Source of the DNA: a virus
Lineage: Duplodnaviria; Caudoviricetes
Virus record (IMG/VR): IMGVR_UViG_3300014091_000001
Span: 22,392-86,391 of that record
Length of the DNA: 64,000 nucleotides
Direction: 5' to 3' (one strand)
In this document: piece after piece, positions 12,215 through 60,180 of the stretch
Layout of the letters: every line of letters begins with the position of its first letter
Position numbering within the stretch: the stretch's first letter is position 1
The notes under the pieces: model-generated
The model's input: only the letters and a program-made list of their open reading frames with translations
Databases searched by the model: none
Told to the model about the DNA's origin: nothing
Program-made: the position numbers and the translations under genes

Positions 12215-12589
12215 TTAGTTCAGCGTCAGTTGGCTGGGGCGGCAATCGTATAACTCTGCCAACTTTTCCAGTGTGGCAGAACGGGGATTAGCTGATTTCT
12301 CCAGTTGAGAAATAGCGGATTGTTTGACGCCCAGCTTTTCCGCTACATCAGCCTGTGACAGACGGCGAAAGATACGCCAGGCTGCTTGTAGCGTAACTTG
12401 GTTATCCACCATGATGCTTATCACATCATGTGGAACGGTTTCATCATCATTGTCTCCGCTGGCAAAAGGAATAGATTGATAGTCCTCGTCACGATCAGCG
12501 GCATTCAACAAGTCTTGATACATTTCAATAGGAAGAACAACGGAGGTGCGATTTCCTTGTTCATCAAACATGTACTGTATCTTTTGCAT
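12215..12589 (-). CDS. Xre/HigA-type HTH antitoxin
   Basis: RTSVVLPIEMY..L N-terminus; LQAAWRIFRRLSQADVAEKLGVKQSAISQLE cro/C1-type HTH; downstream of a RelE-like gene. Confidence 0.8.
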   Translation of the reverse strand: MQKIQYMFDEQGNRTSVVLPIEMYQDLLNAADRDEDYQSIPFASGDNDDETVPHDVISIMVDNQVTLQAAWRIFRRLSQADVAEKLGVKQSAISQLEKSANPRSATLEKLAELYDCRPSQLTLN

Positions 12590-12741
12590 AATCTCTAATC
12601 TCTAGTATTCAAAGTATTCACGATAGTCTTTGATAGTCGTTTCAGGGTTTAGATACTCATTATGGGTATTACATTAAAATTTCATGGATAACTTACTTTT
12701 TAAAGATAGAGTTTTTTCAATACAGGATTATGGTTAATTTC

Positions 12742-12779
12742 AGTCAGAAGTGGGGGGGAAGCCCCCCCAACTTCTGACT
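12742..12779. other. Long GC hairpin immediately after the RelE toxin stop
   Basis: AGTCAGAAGT-G7-AAG-C7-AACTTCTGACT; no U tract. Confidence 0.75.
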
Positions 12780-13036
12780 TAGTACGTCTTACTTGTCCTT
12801 CGTAAAACCTCCTGAATCTCAATGATTTTTGGGCCGTTATCAAACTCAAAAATCACCCTGTAATCACCAATCGTGAGTCGATATTTCGAACCCATGTCGG
12901 TGAGTTTTTTTATATCCAGATTTACCGAAGGGAAGCCGGTAAGCATGGCTACCTTGTCCTTCACGGTTTTTTGATATCTGGTATCTATTTTCGAGAGCTG
13001 TTTAATGGCTCTTTGAGTCCAGTTTACCTTAACCAT
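12779..13036 (-). CDS. RelE/HigB-family toxin
   Basis: VNWTQRAIKQLSKI, DIKKL, YRLTIGDYRVIF, IIEIQEVLRR: RelE pattern. Confidence 0.88.
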   Translation of the reverse strand: MVKVNWTQRAIKQLSKIDTRYQKTVKDKVAMLTGFPSVNLDIKKLTDMGSKYRLTIGDYRVIFEFDNGPKIIEIQEVLRRTSKTY

Positions 13037-13255
13037 AAGTCCCCATTTTTAAAGAGCTTATCCACAAGGGATGTATGTAATATAAGTCTTTATACTTATA
13101 ACGTCAAGATAGAATCTTATGTTTTTATAAGTGTTTCGGCTCGCCTATCATTTGTGTGATGTAAGTGCAACTCTACGATTCTGAAAGTGAATAGGCCTTG
13201 CAATATGAAGGCCAATTGTTATTCTTTGCGCCGCAGGTCACATTACCTGTCGGGC

Positions 13256-13279
13256 GTGGAAACCCGGAAAAGCAAAAGA
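13256..13279 (+). promoter_or_regulatory. C4 target sites a1 (GTGGAAA) and b1 (GCAAAAGA)
   Basis: Exactly complementary to TTTCCAC (13415-13421) and TCTTTTGC (13400-13407) in the downstream C4-like RNA. Confidence 0.75.
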
Positions 13280-13356
13280 CGGTTCAGAGCGTCAGAAATG
13301 ACAGCTGCTCTGTACCGTAGCGTCAGCGCACCCAAAAAACGGCTAATGCCGTTCGA

Positions 13357-13440
13357 ATTATGGTGGCGCTGGCAGGGCAGCTTACGGGCTGGCCGGTATT
13401 CTTTTGCGCCGGTATTTCCACTCCTGTCAGTGTCACCACC
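13357..13440 (+). ncRNA. C4-type antisense RNA
   Basis: ATTATGGTGGCGCTGGCAGGGCAGC..GCTGGCCGGT-loop-GCCGGT..CCTGTCAGTGTCACCACC closely follows the P1/P7 C4 fold; followed by CCGGTGGTGA (13461-13470), an alternative partner for TCACCACC. Confidence 0.8.
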
Positions 13441-13497
13441 ATTTTCCGTAAAGTAACTTCCCGGTGGTGATAGCAATACCAAACGAGGGATTTTACC

Positions 13498-13761
13498 GTG
13501 TCTTATCTTGCCCCTATCCTTGCCCCCATCTTACACCCCTTAGTTGCGTCCTCCGGCGATACCGGCTTAGACATGAATGCGGCAATTACTGGCCTCTTTC
13601 ATGGGTACAATTCTGAATATTGCCGCCGCCAATGCTGGACACCTGCTGAACATGTGACCCTTGAAGGGGAACAGATGGTATTCAATGACGCTGCTGGTGG
13701 AATGACAGCTTATCTCCCATCTGTAGCTGATCTACTCGCGCTGGATTGGATTCTGGTATAG
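13498..13761 (+). CDS. Tad2/DUF2829-like small protein
   Basis: LDMNAAITGL..YCRRQCW..AYLPSVADLLALDWILV parallels the DUF2829 pattern (F.EAL..LK.G..V.R.GW ... W.PSQTD.LAEDW); GTG start with GAGGG RBS. Confidence 0.6.
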   Translation: MSYLAPILAPILHPLVASSGDTGLDMNAAITGLFHGYNSEYCRRQCWTPAEHVTLEGEQMVFNDAAGGMTAYLPSVADLLALDWILV

Positions 13762-13806
13762 CCCCCACAAAACAGTAAATCCTGATCTCTGTCATACAAA
13801 AATGCA

Positions 13807-13870
13807 TTGCCAACCTAATACTGTCACATCATAATCTTGTACTACTGTATTACACTATTACAATGTGACA
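13807..13870 (+). promoter_or_regulatory. parA promoter with operator repeats
   Basis: TTGCCA(13807)-N17-CATAAT(13830); TACTGTAT TACACTAT TACAATGT at 13843-13866; TGTCACA/TGTGACA inverted pair. Confidence 0.6.
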
Positions 13871-13889
13871 GGCTTAACGGGGGGAGTGA

Positions 13890-22156: not shown

Positions 22157-23358
22157 TGTGAATTACCTTTGTTTTTCACGTATTCAATAAAGCGCTTATC
22201 CGCCTCAGTGCGGGAAACCCCCATCGCCACCAGCGCATCGGTAAAGGCTTGTTTTTGCACTTTGAACTGATCAGCTAATTGCTGCTGTAGCAACTTGCTT
22301 TTCTCTTTTTCCTGTTTGAGTTTCTTCTCTTTCTCGGCTGCGCGGGCGCGCTGAGATGCGCTCATTTTTTTGGCTTTAACAAGCTGCTTGCTCAGCTGGT
22401 CCAGCTTCTTAGCGTCTCGACCAATCTGTTTACCCAACGCCAGCTGGCGCTTCTGATAGCGCTCAAACTCGACTTTAGCGGCGTTTTTATTGGTCAAAGA
22501 ACTGCGATTCTTTCCAAACAGCTTGCGATCTTCATCAGTGAAATGCTGTGTGGTACGACGGCGATCGTCACCAAAAGCTACGCGGGCCGCCGCTTTCAAC
22601 ATTGCTTTGCCGATAACCATTTGCCAGCTGGTGGATTGAAGGCGCGTCATGGCATGGATCACATGCTTGCATGCGACACCACTGAGGTTAGGGTTTCGGA
22701 TTTTCGGAAAGGCATATTCTTTCGGCGGGGCCAGGGCGAAATTCCCTGCTGTAGCAATATAGCGGTACCAGTATTGATGGCGTCCGCAATCGCAATCAAA
22801 AGAGATACGACCGGCACAAAGTCGCTTAGCTACCTTAATGGCGTTCTTTTCATCGCTCAGGTCGTCGATGAGCTCGTCCCATTCTTCGAAGCGAACCTTG
22901 ACGCGGTGATGTTGGTCCTCACTCCGTTCGGAGGCCTCCACACTTACTGAAATGATATTGTGTTTAAGTGCCGATGGCGTTGCCCGCTTAATGCCAGAAC
23001 CGTCGTCTACTTTGTTGTTGGCGCGTTTTATATCAATATCGAGACTCGCGGCCACAAGTTGAGCATACGTGATCCCCGCCACGCCAGAATTGAATTGCTG
23101 GCGCGCTTGCTTTCGCTGATTGGTGAAGTTCTTCAGGTCGTCTTCGGTAAAAAAGGTGCCGTCTTTCTTTTTCTTGCCCAGCGCAATAATGTCGTCAGCT
23201 GATTTATTTTTAAGCGTAAGCGGGGTAAGTGTGCGACGCGCGGCGCGGCGCTTTCGGCGTTTGTCGTCCTCAATCTGATTGAAGAGACGCTCGAACTGCT
23301 TTGAAGACAAGCCTTCTGTCAGATAGCGCCCGTTGCTGGCGCGGAGGAACTCAGCCAC
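22153..23358 (-). CDS. gp25: P1 gp25-like protein with SWIM-type CxC...CxH motif
   Basis: FDCDCGRHQYWYRYIAT...PKIRNPNLSGVACKHVI. Confidence 0.75.
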   Translation of the reverse strand: MAEFLRASNGRYLTEGLSSKQFERLFNQIEDDKRRKRRAARRTLTPLTLKNKSADDIIALGKKKKDGTFFTEDDLKNFTNQRKQARQQFNSGVAGITYAQLVAASLDIDIKRANNKVDDGSGIKRATPSALKHNIISVSVEASERSEDQHHRVKVRFEEWDELIDDLSDEKNAIKVAKRLCAGRISFDCDCGRHQYWYRYIATAGNFALAPPKEYAFPKIRNPNLSGVACKHVIHAMTRLQSTSWQMVIGKAMLKAAARVAFGDDRRRTTQHFTDEDRKLFGKNRSSLTNKNAAKVEFERYQKRQLALGKQIGRDAKKLDQLSKQLVKAKKMSASQRARAAEKEKKLKQEKEKSKLLQQQLADQFKVQKQAFTDALVAMGVSRTEADKRFIEYVKNKGNSQ

Positions 23359-38779: not shown

Positions 38780-39814
38780 ATGCCGGTATTTGACGATGCA
38801 ATGTTTGAACATCAGTACAAGGAGTTTTTAAAAGTAAAAACTGACTGGCTTGAGCTGGTGGGTTCGCTTGCCGTACATCACAGCAAAAATTCCCGGGATG
38901 AGTTAATTCGCCCGGTCGCATTTTCTAACGATGAAAGTGACTTTTATCGTGCTATTGATTTACATATTAGATGGAAAAAATTTGCTGAAATGGCCGATGA
39001 GCGACGCAAGAAAAAAAGCATTGCGATCCCAGCGTCCTTATATTCACCCGTTCCGTTAATGGTTATTGAACCAGAACGGTTTGGGTTGACGACGTTTAAT
39101 GCCACCACGACGACGACTAATACGCGTGAGGACATTTTGCAGCGTTATGAAAAGCAAAAATTAAAACTAAAGAAAATCCCATACACAGCTGACAGTATTA
39201 AAGCCCTGGATGAGGAAGCGGCATGGTTTGCCGCCCTGCCAGAAGGTAGGCTTTTCCGTTGCCGCACCAGCGGCTATGAGGACACGATCGCAGAGATAAT
39301 TTTTAAAGGAGAGCAAGAGTCCCATAAAACCCGTTACGGGGTTCATGGCGTTTTTGTTTATCATCCTAACTGGACTAAAGAAAACATTATTATTCAGGAA
39401 GGTCCATCCATTGAATATTCGGGAAAGTACGATTTAATTTCACCCGTGAAATGCTCACTTTTCCCTGGCAGCAAACTTTATGATATCGAAGATATAAATA
39501 TTGCGGACAAAAAGGCGCAACAAAGAGCGATTGTGGACCAGGCAATTCATGCCCGACGCTATAACTTCGAACGCCGGGCTAAATCACGCATGATCCGCGC
39601 TGAAACTCAGGAAAAGGCTGAAATTGTTGCAGGTCAGATCGAACAAGACCGGCAGAACATGATGAGACTCAACGAAATGGACCTGCAACTACTGGATAGA
39701 AAATTTGCGTCCGGTAATCTGAATGTGCTCAAAATGACTGAATTACGCGAAATGTACGGCGAAAAGCAGTCCCGCAGAGGAAAGAAATTCAAAGAGCTGG
39801 CTCAACGCGGCTAA
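38780..39814 (+). CDS. c1: C1-type primary repressor (with a C-terminal extension)
   Basis: QYKEF, IRPV, IAIPASLYSPVP, FRCRTSGYEDT, GVF, YDLISPVKC parallel P1 C1; convergent with pacB as in P1. Confidence 0.75.
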   Translation: MPVFDDAMFEHQYKEFLKVKTDWLELVGSLAVHHSKNSRDELIRPVAFSNDESDFYRAIDLHIRWKKFAEMADERRKKKSIAIPASLYSPVPLMVIEPERFGLTTFNATTTTTNTREDILQRYEKQKLKLKKIPYTADSIKALDEEAAWFAALPEGRLFRCRTSGYEDTIAEIIFKGEQESHKTRYGVHGVFVYHPNWTKENIIIQEGPSIEYSGKYDLISPVKCSLFPGSKLYDIEDINIADKKAQQRAIVDQAIHARRYNFERRAKSRMIRAETQEKAEIVAGQIEQDRQNMMRLNEMDLQLLDRKFASGNLNVLKMTELREMYGEKQSRRGKKFKELAQRG

Positions 39815-45974: not shown

Positions 45975-46050
45975 TGGTGGCCCCTGCCGGGTTTGAACCG
46001 GCGACCTCGCCCTTATGAGGGGCTTACTCTAACCGCTGAGTTAAGGGGCC
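45975..46050 (-). tRNA. tRNA with CAT anticodon, probably Ile2 (lysidine; ileX/P1 trnI-like)
   Basis: 76 nt cloverleaf GGCCCCT...CTCATAA...GGTTCAAAC...AGGGGCCACCA; acceptor stem as in E. coli ileX; encoded CCA. Confidence 0.9.
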
Positions 46051-50269: not shown

Positions 50270-50563
50270 TCACTGGTTAAGCCAGACCACCAGCGCCAAC
50301 ACCAGAAAAGGAAAAATGCAACAAGCGCCCCAGGTTAAGCGGGTTAACAGGCGCGACGGTGCAACGCCGGTCGAGTATTCTTCTTCCACCATGTGCCCTA
50401 AGTAGCTCACGGCCATAACCACAGTGTTTTCACTGAGATCAAGGGCCATGTATGCACTTGCGATATCCCGCGCCGTAACCCGGGCCTTTTCGGTAGTGAT
50501 AATGACGCTGCGGCAGCGCGCACCTTCATCCATAAATGAAATATTATAATAGTGGTTAGGCAC
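50270..50563 (-). CDS. Small phage protein (tentatively P1 PdcA-like) with C-terminal TM
   Basis: HYYNISF...RVT..DI..A....L..N.VV...SYLGHM pattern; coupled operon. Confidence 0.55.
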   Translation of the reverse strand: MPNHYYNISFMDEGARCRSVIITTEKARVTARDIASAYMALDLSENTVVMAVSYLGHMVEEEYSTGVAPSRLLTRLTWGACCIFPFLVLALVVWLNQ

Positions 50564-51104
50564 TTATCGGCTCCCAATCAGATGTTGTCATGTCAGAAAC
50601 GCTGGGCAGATATGGGAGCTCACCGCCTTTGCCATCGTTATAAACAAACATCAAATCTTCACTGTCAGGCAGACCATGACGCTGGCGTAATTCCATGGCA
50701 TCCTCGCGGGAGGCAAGAGTTACAAACTCCTGCCAGCCAGCACGGCGCACCGCTAATACCAGTTTGTTACTCAAAGCTAATAATGCATTGTTAATGTCCA
50801 TCTCTGCCTTAATCCCTAAACTCATCGCTATGCTGTACTGCTCATGGGTCATTAACGGTAATGCATTCGCCAGTGCAGCGCGCAATATCCCGGTTAAGCC
50901 TTTAATTCCGCCGTAGTAATTTAACTTCCGCTCGTTCATGGCACAGCGTGACAGCACATCTTGCTTGTTTGGCTTGCCACCAGCGGTAAGAACCGTAGTT
51001 ATAAAATCAAGAACCTCTGAAACCTCTTCCCGTGATTTGGCACGACGCGCAACATCCATTACCACACGGTTAGAAATGAAAAAGCTCCGGCTAAATAAAC
51101 TCAA
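50556..51104 (-). CDS. Protein with C-terminal Tad2/DUF2829-like domain
   Basis: DINNALLAL..LAVRRAGW...VYNDGKGGELPYLPSVSDMTTSDW. Confidence 0.6.
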   Translation of the reverse strand: MSLFSRSFFISNRVVMDVARRAKSREEVSEVLDFITTVLTAGGKPNKQDVLSRCAMNERKLNYYGGIKGLTGILRAALANALPLMTHEQYSIAMSLGIKAEMDINNALLALSNKLVLAVRRAGWQEFVTLASREDAMELRQRHGLPDSEDLMFVYNDGKGGELPYLPSVSDMTTSDWEPISA

Positions 51105-53328: not shown

Positions 53329-56300
53329 TTAGTTGAGTAACATCTGAATGTCGCTATGGATTTTTTCAAGCGGGAAGCTTGCCGGAACAATCCAGGCTGG
53401 CCGGGTGAACTCATTTCCGCTTACTGGATCGTCTTCGAAATTCCAGAATTGAGCCTGGTATTTTTCTTTGAGCATGCTACGGATATGCGCTGATTTCAGC
53501 GTTGCTCGCCCCGTTGAGTCAATCAGCACATGCGCCCCACCAGCTGGGTAATTAATTTTAAACGTGCGGTTCTTCCATTTACGCTGCCCTTCCAGTGGTT
53601 GTTGATTGGTGCTGGCCGTATAGCCATATTTTTCTGCTACCGACTGGCCATCACTCAGCTGTCTGGCATCGTCAGCTTTGCGGCTTTCTTCTTCCTGGCG
53701 CAACGCGTCCATTTCTTCGCTGGAAATTTCCCCGGCAAGCATTGCCATGTAAGCCTCAAATGACGGGGCAAACTCTTTATAACCATTGTATTTCAGTGCC
53801 TGGACCGCGTTACGTGCTGTGTCCAGAAGCTGCCTAACCCGCGAAACCGAAACGAACGTATCTGCATTAACTGTGCTTCGTGAATACGCGCCCACCAGCA
53901 CACCGGCCATAACCAGTTCTGGCAGTTTATGTGTCATTACTGTGCCAGAAGTTTCAACGCGGCCCATGAAGCCAGTCACGTTGATATCCTCCAGAATCCG
54001 CACCTCGGGCAGAGTTGTTTTCTCGTCCAGGCGCTCAAACTGAACATATAGCTGTTTTGCTGTGCGTTCTAATGCTTCTTTGACCTCTACAATCTTGGCG
54101 GCAACGCGCTCATTCAGAATCGTATCCACAAATGACCGGATTTGGGTGAGGTTGCTAAACCCCTTATTAAATTTCATTACCTTTCGAGCCGGTAATGCAC
54201 TTAGCCAGAAACGACTAATCCGATCGGTGTTGTTAAAAAACGCAGAATGAACATCGTTCTCTGAGGCTCCCGCCAGCTGCATGCCATTTTCTGACTCAAC
54301 GCTCTGGCGCGCCGCCTCAAAGATTTCCAGCGCATCTTCCATCGTTGCCTGTTCGCCGAAGCCTTCCAGCGCAGAATCATAGTCCTCACCAAACACCGCC
54401 GAAAACAGTGATCGCACCGAATACACCGATCCATTAGTTTTAGAGTATTCGTACATTGCCCGTTTCAGGCCTTCATCATTACTGTCTGGATAAACCAGAC
54501 GTTCCGGGTAATCAGTATTAAGCGCCCCACCGTTGATATGGACGGATTCTAAATGGCCTTCTTCGCCATAAATCAACCAGCCATCGCCTTTAACGCGCAT
54601 AAACCCTTCTTTTACCGCGTCGGTAAACTCAGCGCGACTCAGGGTTCCAACAATTTCAGATGCCCACAGTCCTGCGTTAGCGCGTCTGCGTGATGCGGCC
54701 ACGCTCTCCGTTACGTCTACTTGTTCCCGGACATTCTCCATAGAGACTTCGTAAACGGCACCAATTCTGTTTATGGCATAGGGCTTAATCGCAGCATACA
54801 TAACCGTAACTTCAACAGTGCCTTTGTCCGGCATAAGGCGCTGGATTTGTCCCACATAGCGGTCATTGCTGGCGATCCAGTAATAAGCGCCCTCTTTAAT
54901 CAATGAGCCTTGCGGTGTCTTAACATATTGGGATGGATTAAGAAGCACATCAGGGTCAACCTTGATAACCCCTGATTTAATACCGCGCTCCAGATCACCA
55001 CGCGCGCGCTTAACCATTGTTGAGGCGCTTTTTGCTCGGCTGAGAACGTTACGTGATTTTTTCACGTCGCTTTTGTATTCGGTCAGTTCTTCAATAGCCG
55101 TTTTAAGATAGGAGCGGGCCATTCGCCGGGAACCTGCATGATAAATATCTGCGCTGCGTTTGCCGTGCGAGGCGGCCCACTCGTTATAGTCGCTTTCCTC
55201 CTGGGCAACTTTCTGCCGCAACTCTTCAACCTTTTCCTCATGAGCAGCTAATTTTTGCTCAGCGGTTTCGAGCTGGCTGGCAAGAATGGCAGGATCTTCT
55301 TTTGCGGCCACGGAGGCACGGAGGAATACGTCTAACGCAGTTTCGGCTTCTTTCTCTGCGCGCATGCGCTCAGCTTCACGGCGGGCGGCCAGCTGAGCAT
55401 TAATTCGTGCCTGCCTTTCTTCCGGGTTAGCGGCCAACATCAAATTAATTTCGTCTTTCTCATCCACGTTGCCGTTTTTGTAACTGGAAACATCAGATGT
55501 CATTATCTGATTGATCCAGTCTTTCTTGCGTTGGAGTGTTTGCAGGCGGAATTCATCAAAACTCCCTTTGCCGCAGTAATAGTGAACATTAACGCTTTGC
55601 TGACTTGAGCCAACACGCGCACCGCGCCCGTTACGCTGGGCAATGCTCGCTGGAGTCCATGGCAAGGTGAGATGGTGAATATCAGTCGTACCTTTGTGAA
55701 GGTTAATGCCCACTTCCGCCTTCTTGTTACAGATAACGATCGGGGTGCGCCCCTCGTTATAATCGGCGGCAATTCCTTCCATGCCGCTTAGCGACATATC
55801 ATTCAGCGCGGACAGGTAATCGTCATATTTAGCCAGATCGACATAATATTTTTCCCATGCGCCGTCTTTGTAACTGCCATCCGCTCGCTCTGCGGGCTCA
55901 ACTGGTTTTTTGACCTTCTTAATTTTGGGACCATTAGCCTGCGCCACCGTAGACGCGTTAATAATCCCTATCTGGTTTTCCTCCAAACCCAGCGAACGGG
56001 CAATGATCCTCCGCAGTTTGTTGTGCTGACTTTTCTCATCCATGAAAATGATTTGCTTGCCGTTCTGCATACCGGCTTTGAGATTTTCTATCAGGGCAGC
56101 GTATTTTGGCGGGATGGGGTGAGTGACTGTATTCAGCTCGATACCGGCTGCGGCAATGGCTTTCATCACGTCCGCTTCAAGTTCAACACTTACCAGCAGT
56201 TCTACTGCGTCCGCTTTCTCTGTAACGGTCGTTTCAACAACCTTACTGGTACGGGTATCCACAAGCCCGGACTCATTTTCATCCATTTCGTCCGCATCAT

Positions 56301-59300
56301 CGGATTCTTTGCCACCTGCATACACCGGCAGGCCAGCGGCGATAGATTTAATTTTTTCTAACGTTTCAGGTGGGAAGCGGAATGTCAGCGACGAGCGATA
56401 CAGATCCGGGTCAATGACCATTTTATCCATGTCACGGATTACGGAGAAAATAAAGTCTTCGTCTTTGTTTGGCTGGATTGTTACAGAACCATCGTCATTC
56501 TGGACAATGGTCTGTTTTTGCCCGATTCGGCTTGCCCTTTCACGTAGCTCTTCATATAGGGTTCGCTGTTCTTCGGTGAGAGGAACCTCAACCGTTTTTT
56601 CATCCAGGTCAGGAATTTTGACGCTTTCTTTTACGTCAGCCGCTGTTTTTAACGTCGTCCATCGATGGAAAATACCGCGTAAACCATCCAGGTTTTTAAA
56701 GCCCACCAGCCCCTGTTTATCAACCAATTCCCCGGATATTTTTTGAACCACCACATTCGCGGTTTCACCGAACACCCGCACGAAATCATCCGGGGTGAGG
56801 ATGCCCATTGCTTTCCAGTCTTCAACCGGCACAACGTGACTAAGCATGTTGAAAGCATCAAGCGGGCTATTAACGAGGGGGGTTGCTGTCAGGAGCGTTA
56901 CACCGCGCCCGTTATATTTTTTCATTAACCAGGCGCTTTTAACTGCCATATCACGCGCTGTTTGCGCCACCGATGGGCTCGGCAGATACGCAAGCTGAGC
57001 CGTTTCACGACCTGCAGACAAAGAATTGCGGTAATTATGACCTTCATCGGCGATTACATTGTCAAAGTTCATATCCTCAAAATACGGAACCTGGCTTTTC
57101 TTCTCCGTTCCCGTATCAGCGGCTTTATCTTTGATTTTATTTTTCGCTAATTCTGCGCGATGCGAGGATTTGAGTAGGTCTGTGCGGCCCATGTCTACGG
57201 CGTTGTAAAGCGCCTGTGCGGAGTTTTCTTCGATAGTTTCCGGCCGCATTGGGATGGTCCCAAACTGCTCTTTCGTCATAATTACTGAGCGATAATTAGA
57301 CGTAGGAATACGGTTTAGCCGTTCCAGTACCGTAGCCGTGTCTGCGTCTTTGAGAACGTTACGCATCACGGGATTGCCGTCGCGATCGGTGACGGGCTCG
57401 TTATTCTCGTTTCGCACCTGTGATTGCTGGATCTTACCGTCGTCGCCGATTACCTCATCCAGGCCAACGAATAACATCTGATTAAATGAAGCATCGTCAT
57501 AAAAATCGCGAGCTTCGTGATACCAGTTTTGATATACGGCTTTCGGCACAACGATAGCTGTACGCTTTGAGCGGCCATGCTGAAAGTTAAACGCTTCCAG
57601 CGCGAGTGCTGTCGTCGTTTTACCTAACCCTGTACCAAACCCCATAATGCCGCGACCGTCTTCGGACAATCGACGCACTTCTGAGTTCTGGTAGTCCATT
57701 GGAATACGCGCACCAGAGATACCCACAAGGCCCAGGGAATCGCCAGAATGTTCAAAGGGGATGTAGTTATTGAATGCATCGTTATAGTCGTTCTCGATGC
57801 CGGTCACGTCGGGATGCGTTTTCAGCCAGTCGTTAAAGGATGATTCCAGTTTCCCGATCCGTTGCAGATACTTCGCGGCGTTGGCACCGCGCGGCTTGAC
57901 ACCATTCAGATAGTTTTCAAGCTGGTTCAAAAAGCCGTCGCTGTTTGACGCCTCTTTAAATTCTGCAACGCCTGATTTATTGGTGACAGTACGCAGTTTA
58001 TAGCCGGTAAAAACGCCGTCTTTACCGGCATAATCATCCCCGGAAACCAGATATCCATCTTCTACCTGAATATCCTGGGTGTACCTGAAATTGTCATAAC
58101 CCTGTTCGGCCAGAAATTCCTTGATCAGGCGGCGGTCCAACCATCGGGCGTTTAAGTTCACATAGATTTTATCAATGCCAACCGGCTTACGTTTCTCATC
58201 AATAAGCATCATTTGACGAACGTAATTCTGCTTTTGCGGGCCATCAGGGCAATTATTGATCAGCGCCGCCAGATTGCTGATTTTCCCGCGCACGTTTCCA
58301 CTGGTAGCGCGGGACATAGGCAGCACATTACCGTATCCATCAAGGGCGATATCCGGGAACCCAGCCAAATAATCCAGTAAGGCTTCGTCGGATTCTGGTA
58401 GGTGTGCGGTACAGAATTCACGGAATTGTTCGAGCGTCACCGGCACCAGGTCAATCTGGCTGAAAAGATGTGATATCACCTGTTCTGGATTACTGGCATC
58501 GACTGCTATCACTGCTGCGTCATTCATGCGGCCAGTCAACAAATCGGAAAGGTTATTATCGCGGGTAACGTTAGCCTGAAATGTCAGCCAGCCTTTGGCG
58601 GCGCCATGGGATAGTCCCGTTAGCCGTAGGCCGTTAGGAGAACCATATATAGCTACTTCCTGCTCTACCAAACGCGCCGCGTCAGCGAGTAATGGAGATG
58701 CGTCGCTACCCTGAGCAATCAGATTTTGCGCGTCGTTTATTGTCAGACCGATGAGCCCGCCACGCATGGCACGTTCGCGCTGGGCCGGTTTTTGATCGCG
58801 ACTGAATTTTAAAACAGCATGCTGGCGTTCTGACAGCATTGCCGGGTATACATCAGATACGGCATAGAGCTGTTCGGCGCTGAGCGATAAAAGACCATTC
58901 AGTGATTGGCATTTTGTCTGCAGCTCCCCGAACGTTTGGGCGCCAAAACGCTCCGCGTCGATGCCGCTTCTGTCCGTGGTACTATCACGGACCCAGCTTT
59001 CACCGTTGTAAACGTTCCATATCCCCCCCACCAGCCGCTTGTCGCCAACGCTTGCGCCTTGATAGGGATCGTTATTCACGTTCAGCAATTCCCACGCTAT
59101 CCGACTCTCGAAACGTCGGGATAATGCCTGTTTCATGCTGGCATTTGTAATGTGGCCGTCTTTTTTAACGGTGAGGATATTGTTAAAACTGGATCGCTCT
59201 GTTTCCCCGTGAACGAAACGCTTACCCTCGGCGGTAAACCATTTCCCTTTGAGAAACGTGGGCCACAAAACATTAGCATCAGTCAGGGTTTTATCATCTG

Positions 59301-60180
59301 AGTTACTGACTATCTCAGCCAGTGCTTGCGAGTGTTTTCGCAATACCCACACATCCACTACCGTAGCCGTACCGCTCTCGGCAAATGTCCCGGATGGCAT
59401 GCGGTGCGCGCCTAAAAACTCAGCGCGTCGCGCCACTTTGTCACGCAGTTTTTTATTGGTTCCCGTGCCGTCCGTCATGCCATTGGGCACAACCAGCACA
59501 ATCAGGCCGCCAGGCTTCACTTTATCGATAGTGCGCAGGATGAAGTAATGACCAACATTATTTTCTTTTTTATACGCCGGATCTCGTTCGGCAAAACCTG
59601 AACGGCTCTCCCCAAATGGGACGTTTCCAACCGCATGATCATAGGTATCATCGGGAACGGTTGATGCCAGGTCCTCAAACGCCCCAAGTCTTACATCATC
59701 TTCGGGATGAAGAAGCTGGTTAATGCGGCCGGAAACACTGGAGATCTCAGCGGCGGTCATGATTGCGCCTTTTGGTTTCGTTTCCTGGAATATGCCGGTT
59801 GCGGCGGACGGTTCCAGAACATGACCGGAATCCACGCCATAATCAGCCATGAGATCCCAAATCCCTTCGGCCATAAATTGTGGCGTGTAATACTCGTACT
59901 GACTGCCGCCGTCCGTTAAACCACCCTCACCGGTATATCCGGCCAACACCTTCCGCTGCTCATCCGTCAGCATGCTGCCATCCATATTTTCAGGCAATTC
60001 GTGTAACAGGCGCATAGCCGCATTGTTGGCTTCTCGCCGCGCGCGCTGAATACTCACGCCTTCCTCTTTAACGATGCCGAATTGCACTGCTTTCCGCTCT
60101 TTGCGCAAGCGAAGAACGACGTTAATCAGTTCCTCAAGCGATCCTGCCTCGTTTAATTGATCCACTTCAGTAATTGCCAT
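53329..60180 (-). CDS. darB: DarB antirestriction protein (N6-MTase-like plus SF2/SNF2 helicase)
   Basis: YEYYTP, LEPSAATG, GNVPF, GTGLGKT, IADEGHNYRN, LTATP, GINLH, IAQRNGRGARVG; 2283 aa. Confidence 0.93.
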   Translation of the reverse strand: MAITEVDQLNEAGSLEELINVVLRLRKERKAVQFGIVKEEGVSIQRARREANNAAMRLLHELPENMDGSMLTDEQRKVLAGYTGEGGLTDGGSQYEYYTPQFMAEGIWDLMADYGVDSGHVLEPSAATGIFQETKPKGAIMTAAEISSVSGRINQLLHPEDDVRLGAFEDLASTVPDDTYDHAVGNVPFGESRSGFAERDPAYKKENNVGHYFILRTIDKVKPGGLIVLVVPNGMTDGTGTNKKLRDKVARRAEFLGAHRMPSGTFAESGTATVVDVWVLRKHSQALAEIVSNSDDKTLTDANVLWPTFLKGKWFTAEGKRFVHGETERSSFNNILTVKKDGHITNASMKQALSRRFESRIAWELLNVNNDPYQGASVGDKRLVGGIWNVYNGESWVRDSTTDRSGIDAERFGAQTFGELQTKCQSLNGLLSLSAEQLYAVSDVYPAMLSERQHAVLKFSRDQKPAQRERAMRGGLIGLTINDAQNLIAQGSDASPLLADAARLVEQEVAIYGSPNGLRLTGLSHGAAKGWLTFQANVTRDNNLSDLLTGRMNDAAVIAVDASNPEQVISHLFSQIDLVPVTLEQFREFCTAHLPESDEALLDYLAGFPDIALDGYGNVLPMSRATSGNVRGKISNLAALINNCPDGPQKQNYVRQMMLIDEKRKPVGIDKIYVNLNARWLDRRLIKEFLAEQGYDNFRYTQDIQVEDGYLVSGDDYAGKDGVFTGYKLRTVTNKSGVAEFKEASNSDGFLNQLENYLNGVKPRGANAAKYLQRIGKLESSFNDWLKTHPDVTGIENDYNDAFNNYIPFEHSGDSLGLVGISGARIPMDYQNSEVRRLSEDGRGIMGFGTGLGKTTTALALEAFNFQHGRSKRTAIVVPKAVYQNWYHEARDFYDDASFNQMLFVGLDEVIGDDGKIQQSQVRNENNEPVTDRDGNPVMRNVLKDADTATVLERLNRIPTSNYRSVIMTKEQFGTIPMRPETIEENSAQALYNAVDMGRTDLLKSSHRAELAKNKIKDKAADTGTEKKSQVPYFEDMNFDNVIADEGHNYRNSLSAGRETAQLAYLPSPSVAQTARDMAVKSAWLMKKYNGRGVTLLTATPLVNSPLDAFNMLSHVVPVEDWKAMGILTPDDFVRVFGETANVVVQKISGELVDKQGLVGFKNLDGLRGIFHRWTTLKTAADVKESVKIPDLDEKTVEVPLTEEQRTLYEELRERASRIGQKQTIVQNDDGSVTIQPNKDEDFIFSVIRDMDKMVIDPDLYRSSLTFRFPPETLEKIKSIAAGLPVYAGGKESDDADEMDENESGLVDTRTSKVVETTVTEKADAVELLVSVELEADVMKAIAAAGIELNTVTHPIPPKYAALIENLKAGMQNGKQIIFMDEKSQHNKLRRIIARSLGLEENQIGIINASTVAQANGPKIKKVKKPVEPAERADGSYKDGAWEKYYVDLAKYDDYLSALNDMSLSGMEGIAADYNEGRTPIVICNKKAEVGINLHKGTTDIHHLTLPWTPASIAQRNGRGARVGSSQQSVNVHYYCGKGSFDEFRLQTLQRKKDWINQIMTSDVSSYKNGNVDEKDEINLMLAANPEERQARINAQLAARREAERMRAEKEAETALDVFLRASVAAKEDPAILASQLETAEQKLAAHEEKVEELRQKVAQEESDYNEWAASHGKRSADIYHAGSRRMARSYLKTAIEELTEYKSDVKKSRNVLSRAKSASTMVKRARGDLERGIKSGVIKVDPDVLLNPSQYVKTPQGSLIKEGAYYWIASNDRYVGQIQRLMPDKGTVEVTVMYAAIKPYAINRIGAVYEVSMENVREQVDVTESVAASRRRANAGLWASEIVGTLSRAEFTDAVKEGFMRVKGDGWLIYGEEGHLESVHINGGALNTDYPERLVYPDSNDEGLKRAMYEYSKTNGSVYSVRSLFSAVFGEDYDSALEGFGEQATMEDALEIFEAARQSVESENGMQLAGASENDVHSAFFNNTDRISRFWLSALPARKVMKFNKGFSNLTQIRSFVDTILNERVAAKIVEVKEALERTAKQLYVQFERLDEKTTLPEVRILEDINVTGFMGRVETSGTVMTHKLPELVMAGVLVGAYSRSTVNADTFVSVSRVRQLLDTARNAVQALKYNGYKEFAPSFEAYMAMLAGEISSEEMDALRQEEESRKADDARQLSDGQSVAEKYGYTASTNQQPLEGQRKWKNRTFKINYPAGGAHVLIDSTGRATLKSAHIRSMLKEKYQAQFWNFEDDPVSGNEFTRPAWIVPASFPLEKIHSDIQMLLN

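Follow-up and report, generated by a model that had tools for sequence, protein, structure and literature searches.

A C4 antisense-RNA cassette with a predicted Tad2-fold protein as its only cargo in a distant P1/D6-like phage-plasmid

The antisense RNA C4 of phage P1 silences icd-ant, and the canonical output of a C4 cassette is an antirepressor (annotation NC_005856; PMC8198154). For IsrK of Gifsy-1, which stands before orf45 and anrP, two alternative structures (inactive and active) have been shown experimentally (PMC4825925). As regards Tad2 proteins, each of seven tested signalling defences (of the cyclic oligonucleotide-based antiphage signalling system (CBASS), Pycsar and Thoeris types) was inhibited by at least one of 18 Tad2 homologues, many of which inhibited more than one defence (preprint, bioRxiv 10.1101/2025.08.24.671296). 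Discussion of anti-defence proteins has mostly centred on early genes of lytic phages, and how temperate elements time such proteins is poorly known. Here we describe a C4 cassette whose only cargo is an 87-amino-acid (aa) open reading frame (ORF) with a predicted Tad2 (DUF2829) fold. It lies in a stretch of 64,000 nucleotides (nt), referred to as the window, which is part of an 86-kb viral record (IMGVR_UViG_3300014091_000001, positions 22,392 to 86,391) whose gene content is that of a distant P1/D6-like phage-plasmid. Literature searches brought up no paper that connects C4 with Tad2 or DUF2829; the initial annotation of this DNA likewise knew of no description of such an architecture.

The Rfam C4 model (RF01695) matches positions 13356-13443 of the plus strand over its full length (model positions 1-87), with 76.0 bits and an E-value of 4.5e-13 (gathering score 45), which bears out the C4-fold RNA originally placed at 13357-13440. 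This is the single C4 in the 86-kb genome. Its stand-alone minimum-energy fold (-42.6 kcal/mol) comprises a long closing stem and two inner hairpins; the loop of hairpin 2 is exposed, and the linker is unpaired. The sites were named after P1: site a (7 nt) pairs with the linker, and site b (8 nt) with the hairpin-2 loop. Upstream on the same strand, the linker (a', TTTCCAC, 13415-13421) has an exact 7-nt complement in a1 (GTGGAAA, 13256-13262, in the loop of a small hairpin at 13251-13266), while the loop (b', TCTTTTGC, 13400-13407) has an exact 8-nt complement in b1 (GCAAAAGA, 13272-13279). The initial annotation had already pointed to this double complementarity, and a compensatory change in relatives now supports it: those with the loop TCTTTCGC in place of TCTTTTGC, Leclercia among them, have GCGAAAGA in place of GCAAAAGA as b1.

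Within the 130 nt that precede C4, a1 and b1 would co-occur by chance with a probability of about 5e-5 (the two words have 5 and 4 exact copies per 86-kb strand). Throughout the genome, both exact words stand within 80 nt of each other on the right strand at one place only, namely a1/b1; since this exact-word scan found no second pair, a trans target of C4 elsewhere in the genome was rejected. An energy-based whole-genome scan for C4 targets was unspecific. Shuffle tests of single short sites were weak (even the true a1/b1 were reached by 10-17% of shuffles), and we therefore relied on comparative covariation.

A candidate sigma-70 promoter precedes these sites on the plus strand (13198-13225: -35 TTGCAA at 13198-13203, 16-nt spacer, -10 TATTCT at 13220-13225). 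It matches 8 of the 12 consensus positions and was not listed by our consensus scan. Its position and hexamers are conserved in Leclercia and in two of the sampled cassettes (L006 and L012), and it lies 30 nt from a1 (32 nt in P1); it is the probable promoter of the cassette, the counterpart of P51b of P1. The Rfam c4-a1b1 model (RF03163), which the initial annotation had proposed as a check, gave 23.3 bits (E 0.003) at 13219-13270, below its gathering score of 46.7. The second hairpin of the sub-threshold match is the one that holds a1 in its loop, an arrangement shared by 15 loop specificities, whereas the first hairpin differs.

A pattern scan of viral contigs yielded about 42 real C4 cassettes. 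Across 15 loop/linker specificities, complements of the cassette's own C4 occur at a1 (around -100), b1 (around -85), a2 (+4 to +8 after C4) and b2 (+34 to +39), the last of which sits over the Shine-Dalgarno sequence in the cassettes that have it. Matches to the own loop amount to 15-17 nt; with foreign loops the mean is 8.5-8.8 and the highest value 13. The window has 15 matched nt upstream and 8 downstream (15 and 9 in Leclercia), and the downstream value is that of the background. Together with Leclercia, L035 and L042 it forms the clear exception (15 nt upstream, 8-9 downstream); the L008 and L018 types are intermediate, and the sister lineages L012 and L021 have exact a2/b2. The earlier remark that the expected downstream sites do not match this C4 has proved correct (8 matched nt, against 15-17 elsewhere and a foreign mean of 8.8), and, among these cassettes, the decay of a2/b2 is specific to the window lineage. 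At the expected place of a2 (13444-13462, plus strand), which holds an exact 7-nt site in other cassettes, nothing but GTGGA is left in Leclercia, L035 and L042, and the window has no remnant at all. The leader (13472-13497, plus strand; Shine-Dalgarno sequence GAGGG at 13485-13489) has no b2 at the expected place, and the best loop pairing within it is -5.6 kcal/mol, versus -10.2 for b1.

Between these two places lies an element, GGTGGTGAT (13463-13471, plus strand, with GGTGGTGA at 13463-13470), which is a copy of the C4 5' arm and can pair with the C4 3' arm (13432-13441). The alternative pairing arm reported in the initial annotation is therefore present, but it is not special to this locus: GGTGGTGA is standard in every cassette of the subfamily, icd-type ones included, and it co-varies in L022, where the arm GTCACCGCC occurs with GGCGGTGAC. 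In the predicted minimum-energy fold of the full transcript, a1 and b1 pair in cis with the C4 linker and loop, the C4 5' arm pairs with an upstream element (CAGCGCACC, 13324-13332, plus strand), and the C4 3' arm pairs with the downstream arm-copy. This predicted precursor fold lies 1-10 kcal/mol below the mature-C4 fold, both here and in most other cassette types. The 5' end of P1 C4 is made by RNase P from a longer transcript, as Hartmann et al. are said to have found in 1995; the 3' arm of the C4 described here ends in a tRNA-like CACCA, which is suggestive only as to processing by RNase P. Between the window and the Leclercia copy, 2 of the 88 positions of C4 and about 3 of the 45 nt of the leader differ, while the synonymous sites of the neighbouring ORF are saturated. 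The C4 RNA, a1/b1 and the leader (counted here from 13463 up to the start codon) have remained nearly unchanged despite this saturation, and these RNA parts must therefore be under selection.

The ORF itself (13498-13761, plus strand, GTG start) consists of an N-terminal extension of about 22 residues and a predicted Tad2/DUF2829-fold domain (residues 22-87, nt 13561-13758). The gene caller placed its start at the ATG at 13573 (62-aa form). The GTG at 13498 is preferred because every cassette has its start codon at a distance of 49-56 nt from C4, because an indel relative to relatives keeps the frame, and because the N-terminal part is under purifying selection (pN 0.20-0.29 versus pS 0.64-0.82). 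The ratio of non-synonymous to synonymous substitutions (dN/dS) is 0.09-0.17 for both parts of the ORF, the N-terminal one included, with saturated synonymous sites. A 12-nt tandem duplication at 13507-13530 (CTTGCCCCTATC / CTTGCCCCCATC) adds four residues to the extension (LAPI LAPI); relatives have one copy.

The DUF2829/Tad2 pattern that had been recognised in this ORF from the sequence alone was recovered at the level of predicted structure. With the Pfam Tad2-like model (PF11195, cut-off 25), the 87-aa form scored 24.2 bits and the 62-aa form 25.3 bits; the model matched all 15 family members examined with E-values of 0.01 or better. The top four matches of the family profile in the PDB were Tad2 proteins (E 0.003-0.009), and an exhaustive HMMER search returned few relatives, the real ones all DUF2829. 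An AlphaFold2 model built from a 30-sequence alignment reached a mean predicted local distance difference test (pLDDT) score of 84.3 and a predicted TM (pTM) score of 0.72; a first model from 6 sequences (pLDDT 53) was too poor and was not used. The top 24 Foldseek matches of the model were all Tad2 (probability 1.00, TM 0.68-0.73), and VIA-align placed ten Tad2 entries at Z 9.2-10.6, with a root-mean-square deviation of 1.4-2.1 A over 62-64 residues, while the next unrelated match had Z 4.5. These matches confirm, at the level of structure prediction, that the ORF folds as Tad2/DUF2829 (N-terminal helix, antiparallel sheet and short C-terminal helix).

We mapped the ligand contacts of SPO1 Tad2 (W25, N26, W73 and D79, and also I63, T65, D67, H71, S76 and T78) onto the ORF by alignment. 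Four are kept (W25 as W47, W73 as Y72, S76 as S75 and D79 as D78), and these are invariant or nearly so in the 30 sequences; I63 and T65 correspond to F62 and D64. The C4-linked subfamily is marked by the motifs CRR..W, Y.PS..D and DW, and it has an invariant Arg-Arg pair of its own. Homology of the ORF to P1 Icd (hhalign probability 1.2%) and to Icd or AntA of phiKO2 was rejected. In tblastn searches of annotated phages, neither the ORF nor its relative P0004 had a match, and P0005 had one weak match in a cyanophage (E 0.04), none of which was informative; among plasmids only two Leclercia records were matched. A search for related loci with the ORF protein or its alignment found nothing.

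The association of C4 with this gene, noticed first at a single locus, proved to be recurrent. On the contigs of three distant relatives (P0002, P0004 and P0005), which represent three lineages with proteins 29-45% identical, a C4 above the cut-off lies directly upstream, and the short DUF2829 family stands within 55 nt downstream of C4 in 17 of the approximately 42 cassettes. A single C4 is also present in each of five further phage-plasmid genomes, of which four are 96-100% complete, and P1 Ant was not found in them. In this analysis the short DUF2829 subfamily was found only in C4-gated operons. Its Pantoea members are named "Thoeris anti-defense Tad2 family protein" by NCBI. The claim that C4 is wired to a Tad2-like gene consequently holds for the family, in whose sister lineages a2/b2 are exact; that C4 silences the gene directly as an antisense RNA is doubtful at the present locus. 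It is also correct that icd and ant are missing downstream, where parA and a small partner gene come next; the comparison with Icd was negative, and neither a P1 Ant1 homologue nor the integrase-family cargo of icd-type cassettes is present in the window's own genome.

The remaining sampled cassettes carry an Icd-like leader with a tyrosine-recombinase-family protein or, in one case, a primase-helicase. In eight of them (L017, L019, L030, L034, L040, L050, L051 and L057), exact a1, b1, a2 and b2 are accompanied by an Icd-like leader and then a protein of the tyrosine-recombinase family (about 292 aa; Phage_integrase, 41-44 bits), without an antirepressor; in L022 the primase-helicase lies further downstream of C4. 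Given cargo as varied as DUF2829, icd with a recombinase, a primase-helicase and icd-antA-antB, C4 cassettes can be seen as portable switches, and what they carry is more diverse than the picture drawn from P1 and N15. On five P1-like contigs of 45-95 kb (L008-L011 and L041), two genes that together resemble a defence system stand downstream of the C4-gated Tad2-like gene and in its orientation; they encode an AAA_15/AAA_21 ATPase of 513 aa and a protein of 285 aa. Upstream, repL is divergent. Other P1-like contigs (L012-L016) have a cassette of C4, truncated icd and Tad2-like gene between lydA/lydB/darA and cin, beside an IS605-type tnpB. Their b1 is still followed by a terminator like that of IsrK (Rfam isrK 47.4 bits, cut-off 50), whereas the window lineage has no such terminator.

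The reading that we favour, and to which we give an even chance, is that of an immI-type C4 cassette with a Tad2-fold sponge as cargo, in which a2/b2 have decayed and control in cis is left. The cassette of this phage-plasmid would consist of promoter, a1/b1, C4 and leader, with the 87-aa protein as its only cargo; this protein would bind a nucleotide-type host immune signal, as Tad2 sponges do. Ancestrally it would have been an early, entry-phase product. In the established plasmid-prophage, C4 would accumulate, pair with a2 and with b2 over the Shine-Dalgarno sequence and block translation, as it does for icd-ant of P1, and in the sister lineages most of the protein would come from newly entering DNA, at a time when C4 has not yet accumulated. 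By analogy, the P1 mechanism may be transferred with some confidence to those sister lineages that have exact a2/b2. The term immunity riboswitch, used in the initial annotation, should be abandoned, as C4 is a trans-acting antisense RNA. As no C4 target is found in the leader or elsewhere in the genome, we infer that the window copy has escaped repression in trans. Silencing by C4 in trans would be lost or weak in this copy, and control in cis would remain through the alternative precursor fold and transcript processing, with a1/b1 masking the C4 loops and the arm-copy holding the 3' arm.

The fold, the kept core of the pocket and the breadth of Tad2 activities together make a signal sponge the single most likely function, by analogy with the characterised Tad2 proteins. 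Several observations nevertheless weigh against the proposed sponge or its control. The SPO1 contacts N26, D67, H71 and T78 are lost (replaced by T48, A66, T70 and A77), and, compared with Tad2 proteins of solved structure, the domain is short by about 20 residues. By our reading of lengths and predicted secondary structure, the shortening falls in the alpha-2 loop region that forms the Tad2 dimer unit, and without this loop the tetramer with its inter-subunit pockets may not form. Moreover, the same genome holds a more ordinary Tad2-like domain elsewhere, and the fusion or coupling of the subfamily to antirepressors in phage D6 (see below) suggests, by analogy, a job tied to the switch. As for the RNA, the leader is conserved far beyond neutral sites, which the favoured model does not explain; C4 and a1/b1 are likewise selected with no visible target in trans, and C4 probably still does something for which the model does not account. 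For the sponge of the initial annotation, support extends to the Tad2 fold, from which the activity would follow; the genome has an ordinary Tad2-like gene elsewhere, and the antirepressor fusion turns a part in the switch into a serious alternative.

According to this alternative, the short DUF2829 protein belongs to the machinery that decides between lysis and lysogeny, instead of being an anti-defence sponge, and acts as or with an antirepressor on a C1-type repressor, possibly as a small-molecule-sensing module; here it would be the sole remaining output of an immI-type locus. We regard this as possible and hold it tentatively. The most relevant evidence comes from phage D6, which has two C4 RNAs above the cut-off, each followed by icd and a Rha/Roi-type antirepressor (an antirepressor being the canonical output of such cassettes). 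Both operons (D6_83/D6_82 and D6_19/D6_18/D6_17) end in the short DUF2829 subfamily: in D6_82 it forms the C-terminus of the Rha-type protein (hhalign 93.7%, E 2e-7), and the start of D6_17 (45%, E 2e-4) overlaps the antirepressor stop. The D6_82 domain is missed by the Pfam Tad2 model and is the best match in D6 of the C4-linked profile, while two ordinary Tad2 domains lie elsewhere in the D6 genome; more generally, genomes with a C4-linked copy also carry ordinary Tad2-like genes without a C4 link. This arrangement indicates that the subfamily is an old resident of C4-gated operons and that icd and ant were lost around the ORF described here, which does away with the notion of a one-off repurposing.

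The loss of half of the SPO1 ligand contacts would also fit a role in the switch, as would the finding of a single C4 without P1 Ant in the window's genome and in the five others. A candidate partner exists in this genome: a 344-aa protein encoded at 38780-39814 (plus strand) is 25% identical to the P1 C1 repressor (E 6e-10) and of the same length as the D6 repressor, and it is probably, on the basis of this homology, the primary immunity repressor of the element (its relatives carry the precomputed Pfam entry PF27008). On the other hand, no Tad2-fold protein is known to bind a repressor, and the pocket core (W47, Y72, S75 and D78) is better kept in the window subfamily than in the fused copies of D6. 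Co-transcription or fusion with an early gene would be equally expected of an entry-phase anti-defence protein. P1 has no DUF2829, and the switch can therefore work without it.

A second alternative concerns control rather than function, and we consider it unlikely. C4 might still silence the window ORF by imperfect pairing, of its linker with GGUGGUGAUA at 13462-13473 and of its loop with CAAACGAGG over the Shine-Dalgarno sequence, which would confine synthesis of the protein to entry or induction. At 13462-13473 a 10-bp duplex with the linker is possible, containing two G-U pairs and a single mismatch (-9.0 kcal/mol; 4.7% of shuffles reach this value). Conservation of the leader is strong, and C4, itself conserved, must have some target; in the L018-type sister lineage, G-U pairs in b2 keep the Shine-Dalgarno sequence. 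However, the pairing of the loop with the ribosome site (-5.6 kcal/mol in the window and -4.7 in Leclercia) is reached by 54% and 83% of shuffles, respectively, and the matched length downstream equals the foreign-loop background. Furthermore, GGTGGTGA is kept in cassettes with a different linker and is therefore not an a2 site, and the T/C change by which the loops of the sublineages differ has a compensating change in b1 and none in the leader. Expression only on entry or induction, as originally proposed, needs pairing of C4 with the leader, which is credible in sister lineages with exact a2/b2; with a2/b2 at chance level in the window lineage, the proposal lacks support in this form.

It is also conceivable, if rather improbable in our judgement, that the C4-linked DUF2829 domain is a sensor and not a sponge: it would bind a second messenger of abortive infection (a cADPR isomer or a cyclic nucleotide) and signal to the prophage switch, via the fused antirepressor in D6 or directly via the C1-type repressor in the window. 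If this were true, the plasmid-prophage could induce and escape from a cell about to kill itself. That the cassette is a decaying immI remnant left after the loss of icd and ant, with a functionless ORF, is very improbable: it would fit the decayed a2/b2, a weak resemblance by which the beginning of icd may be the origin of the N-terminal extension (PPIKYPLF in close relatives, PTQKLPKF in Icd-like leaders) and the intermediate state of L012, in which a truncated 35-aa icd overlaps the start of the Tad2-like gene, but it is contradicted by the low dN/dS over both parts of the ORF, by residues invariant across lineages only 25-45% identical, by the conservation of C4, a1/b1 and leader, and by the presence of the arrangement in complete genomes of several lineages.

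The surroundings of the cassette are those of a phage-plasmid. The element encodes a Rep3-type initiator, ParA, a PAAR protein, RdgC, a fused Dam and Dcm methylase, and tail and capsid proteins, and its nearest annotated relatives are 90-kb plasmids of Leclercia adecarboxylata, which share its gene order and are about 77% identical to it. As the stretch from the ORF to parA showed no terminator, transcription from the C4 promoter may run through into parA. Before parA, the region 13790-13880 contains a promoter-like TTGCCA-17-CATAAT (10 of 12 consensus positions) and long inverted repeats (TGTCACA...TGTGACA), which are probably a par operator or centromere. On the other side of the cassette, a toxin-first pair in HigBA-like order (12215-13036, minus strand) encodes a RelE/ParE-type toxin (85 aa) and an HTH_3 antitoxin (124 aa). 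The conserved palindromes ATAAGT...ACTTAT at 13040-13140, in the intergenic region common to the C4 promoter side, are probably the antitoxin operator. The second, more ordinary Tad2-like domain of this genome lies at 50571-50801 on the minus strand (inside ORF 50556-51104) and matches PF11195 over the full length of the profile with 28.6-30.2 bits; it forms the C-terminal part of a 181-aa frame and has no link to any C4. Also on the minus strand are a tRNA gene (45978-46050; Rfam tRNA, 62.9 bits) and a 2282-aa ORF (53329-60180) with N6-methylase and SNF2-helicase domains, similar in size and make-up to the anti-restriction protein DarB of P1.

What is new here is a lineage with decayed a2/b2, together with comparative evidence for the four-site architecture. 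In a clade of P1/D6-like phage-plasmids from Leclercia, Pantoea and E. coli, a well-understood antisense switch that is silent in the prophage and open on entry carries a protein of predicted Tad2 fold, sometimes as its sole cargo. If this protein is a sponge, the arrangement would amount to lysogeny-aware regulation of counter-defence, leaving the signalling immunity of the host intact while the element is resident; if it is part of the switch, the Tad2 fold would have a second, regulatory use. The lineages with intact a2/b2 (the Pantoea and L012 types) and the decayed window lineage form a natural experiment on C4 control. Moreover, the matched sites of the 15 loop specificities speak strongly, by comparison, for the four-site model, and this holds for a1/b1 too, which are poorly understood.

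To conclude, the locus can be set beside the known systems that it resembles. With IsrK of Gifsy-1 it shares an upstream segment of the a1b1 type that, here by prediction, pairs with downstream sequence of its own transcript and so gives alternative folds (the Rfam isrK model gives a sub-threshold 18.1 bits on the a1/b1 region of the window); unlike at Gifsy-1, b1 is not followed by a Rho-independent terminator in the window lineage, so that there is no sign of a short RNA of its own, and the cargo is different. With the Tad2 sponges (SPO1 Gp34.65, ModTad2, SptTad2 and HgmTad2, the last identical to AcrIIA7; PF11195) it shares the predicted fold, four contacts and the C-terminal DW. It departs from them in being about 20 residues shorter around the beta2-beta3 loop and alpha-2, in the loss of N26, D67, H71 and T78, in its own Arg-Arg pair, in a score at the Pfam cut-off, and in its N-terminal extension and C4 linkage; any sponge activity would follow from the modelled fold.

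The anti-immunity locus of N15 and phiKO2 (a small processed RNA, icd, antA and antB) contains the closest C4 of annotated phages (82.8% identity over 87 nt), and in phiKO2 the own loop has complements both upstream and downstream, in keeping with the four-site logic; its cargo is icd-antA-antB, with a Bro-N antirepressor and no DUF2829. The D6 operons share with the window a last cargo of the subfamily with the CRR..W and DW motifs, and ordinary Tad2-like genes elsewhere in the genome, but they keep icd and a Rha/Roi-type antirepressor to which the domain is fused or coupled, and their copies have lost more pocket residues, whereas the window domain stands alone. Compared with immI of P1 and P7 (P51a/b, a1, b1, c4, a2, b2, icd and ant1/ant2), the window cassette lacks icd and ant, encodes a predicted Tad2-fold protein instead, belongs to a lineage in which a2/b2 are unrecognisable, and has no identified C1 operator at its promoter. 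The two are alike in the order and spacing of promoter, a1/b1, C4 and leader, in the C4 fold (Rfam 76 bits here and 68.8 in P1), and in a start codon of the first cargo gene that follows C4 by about 50 nt.

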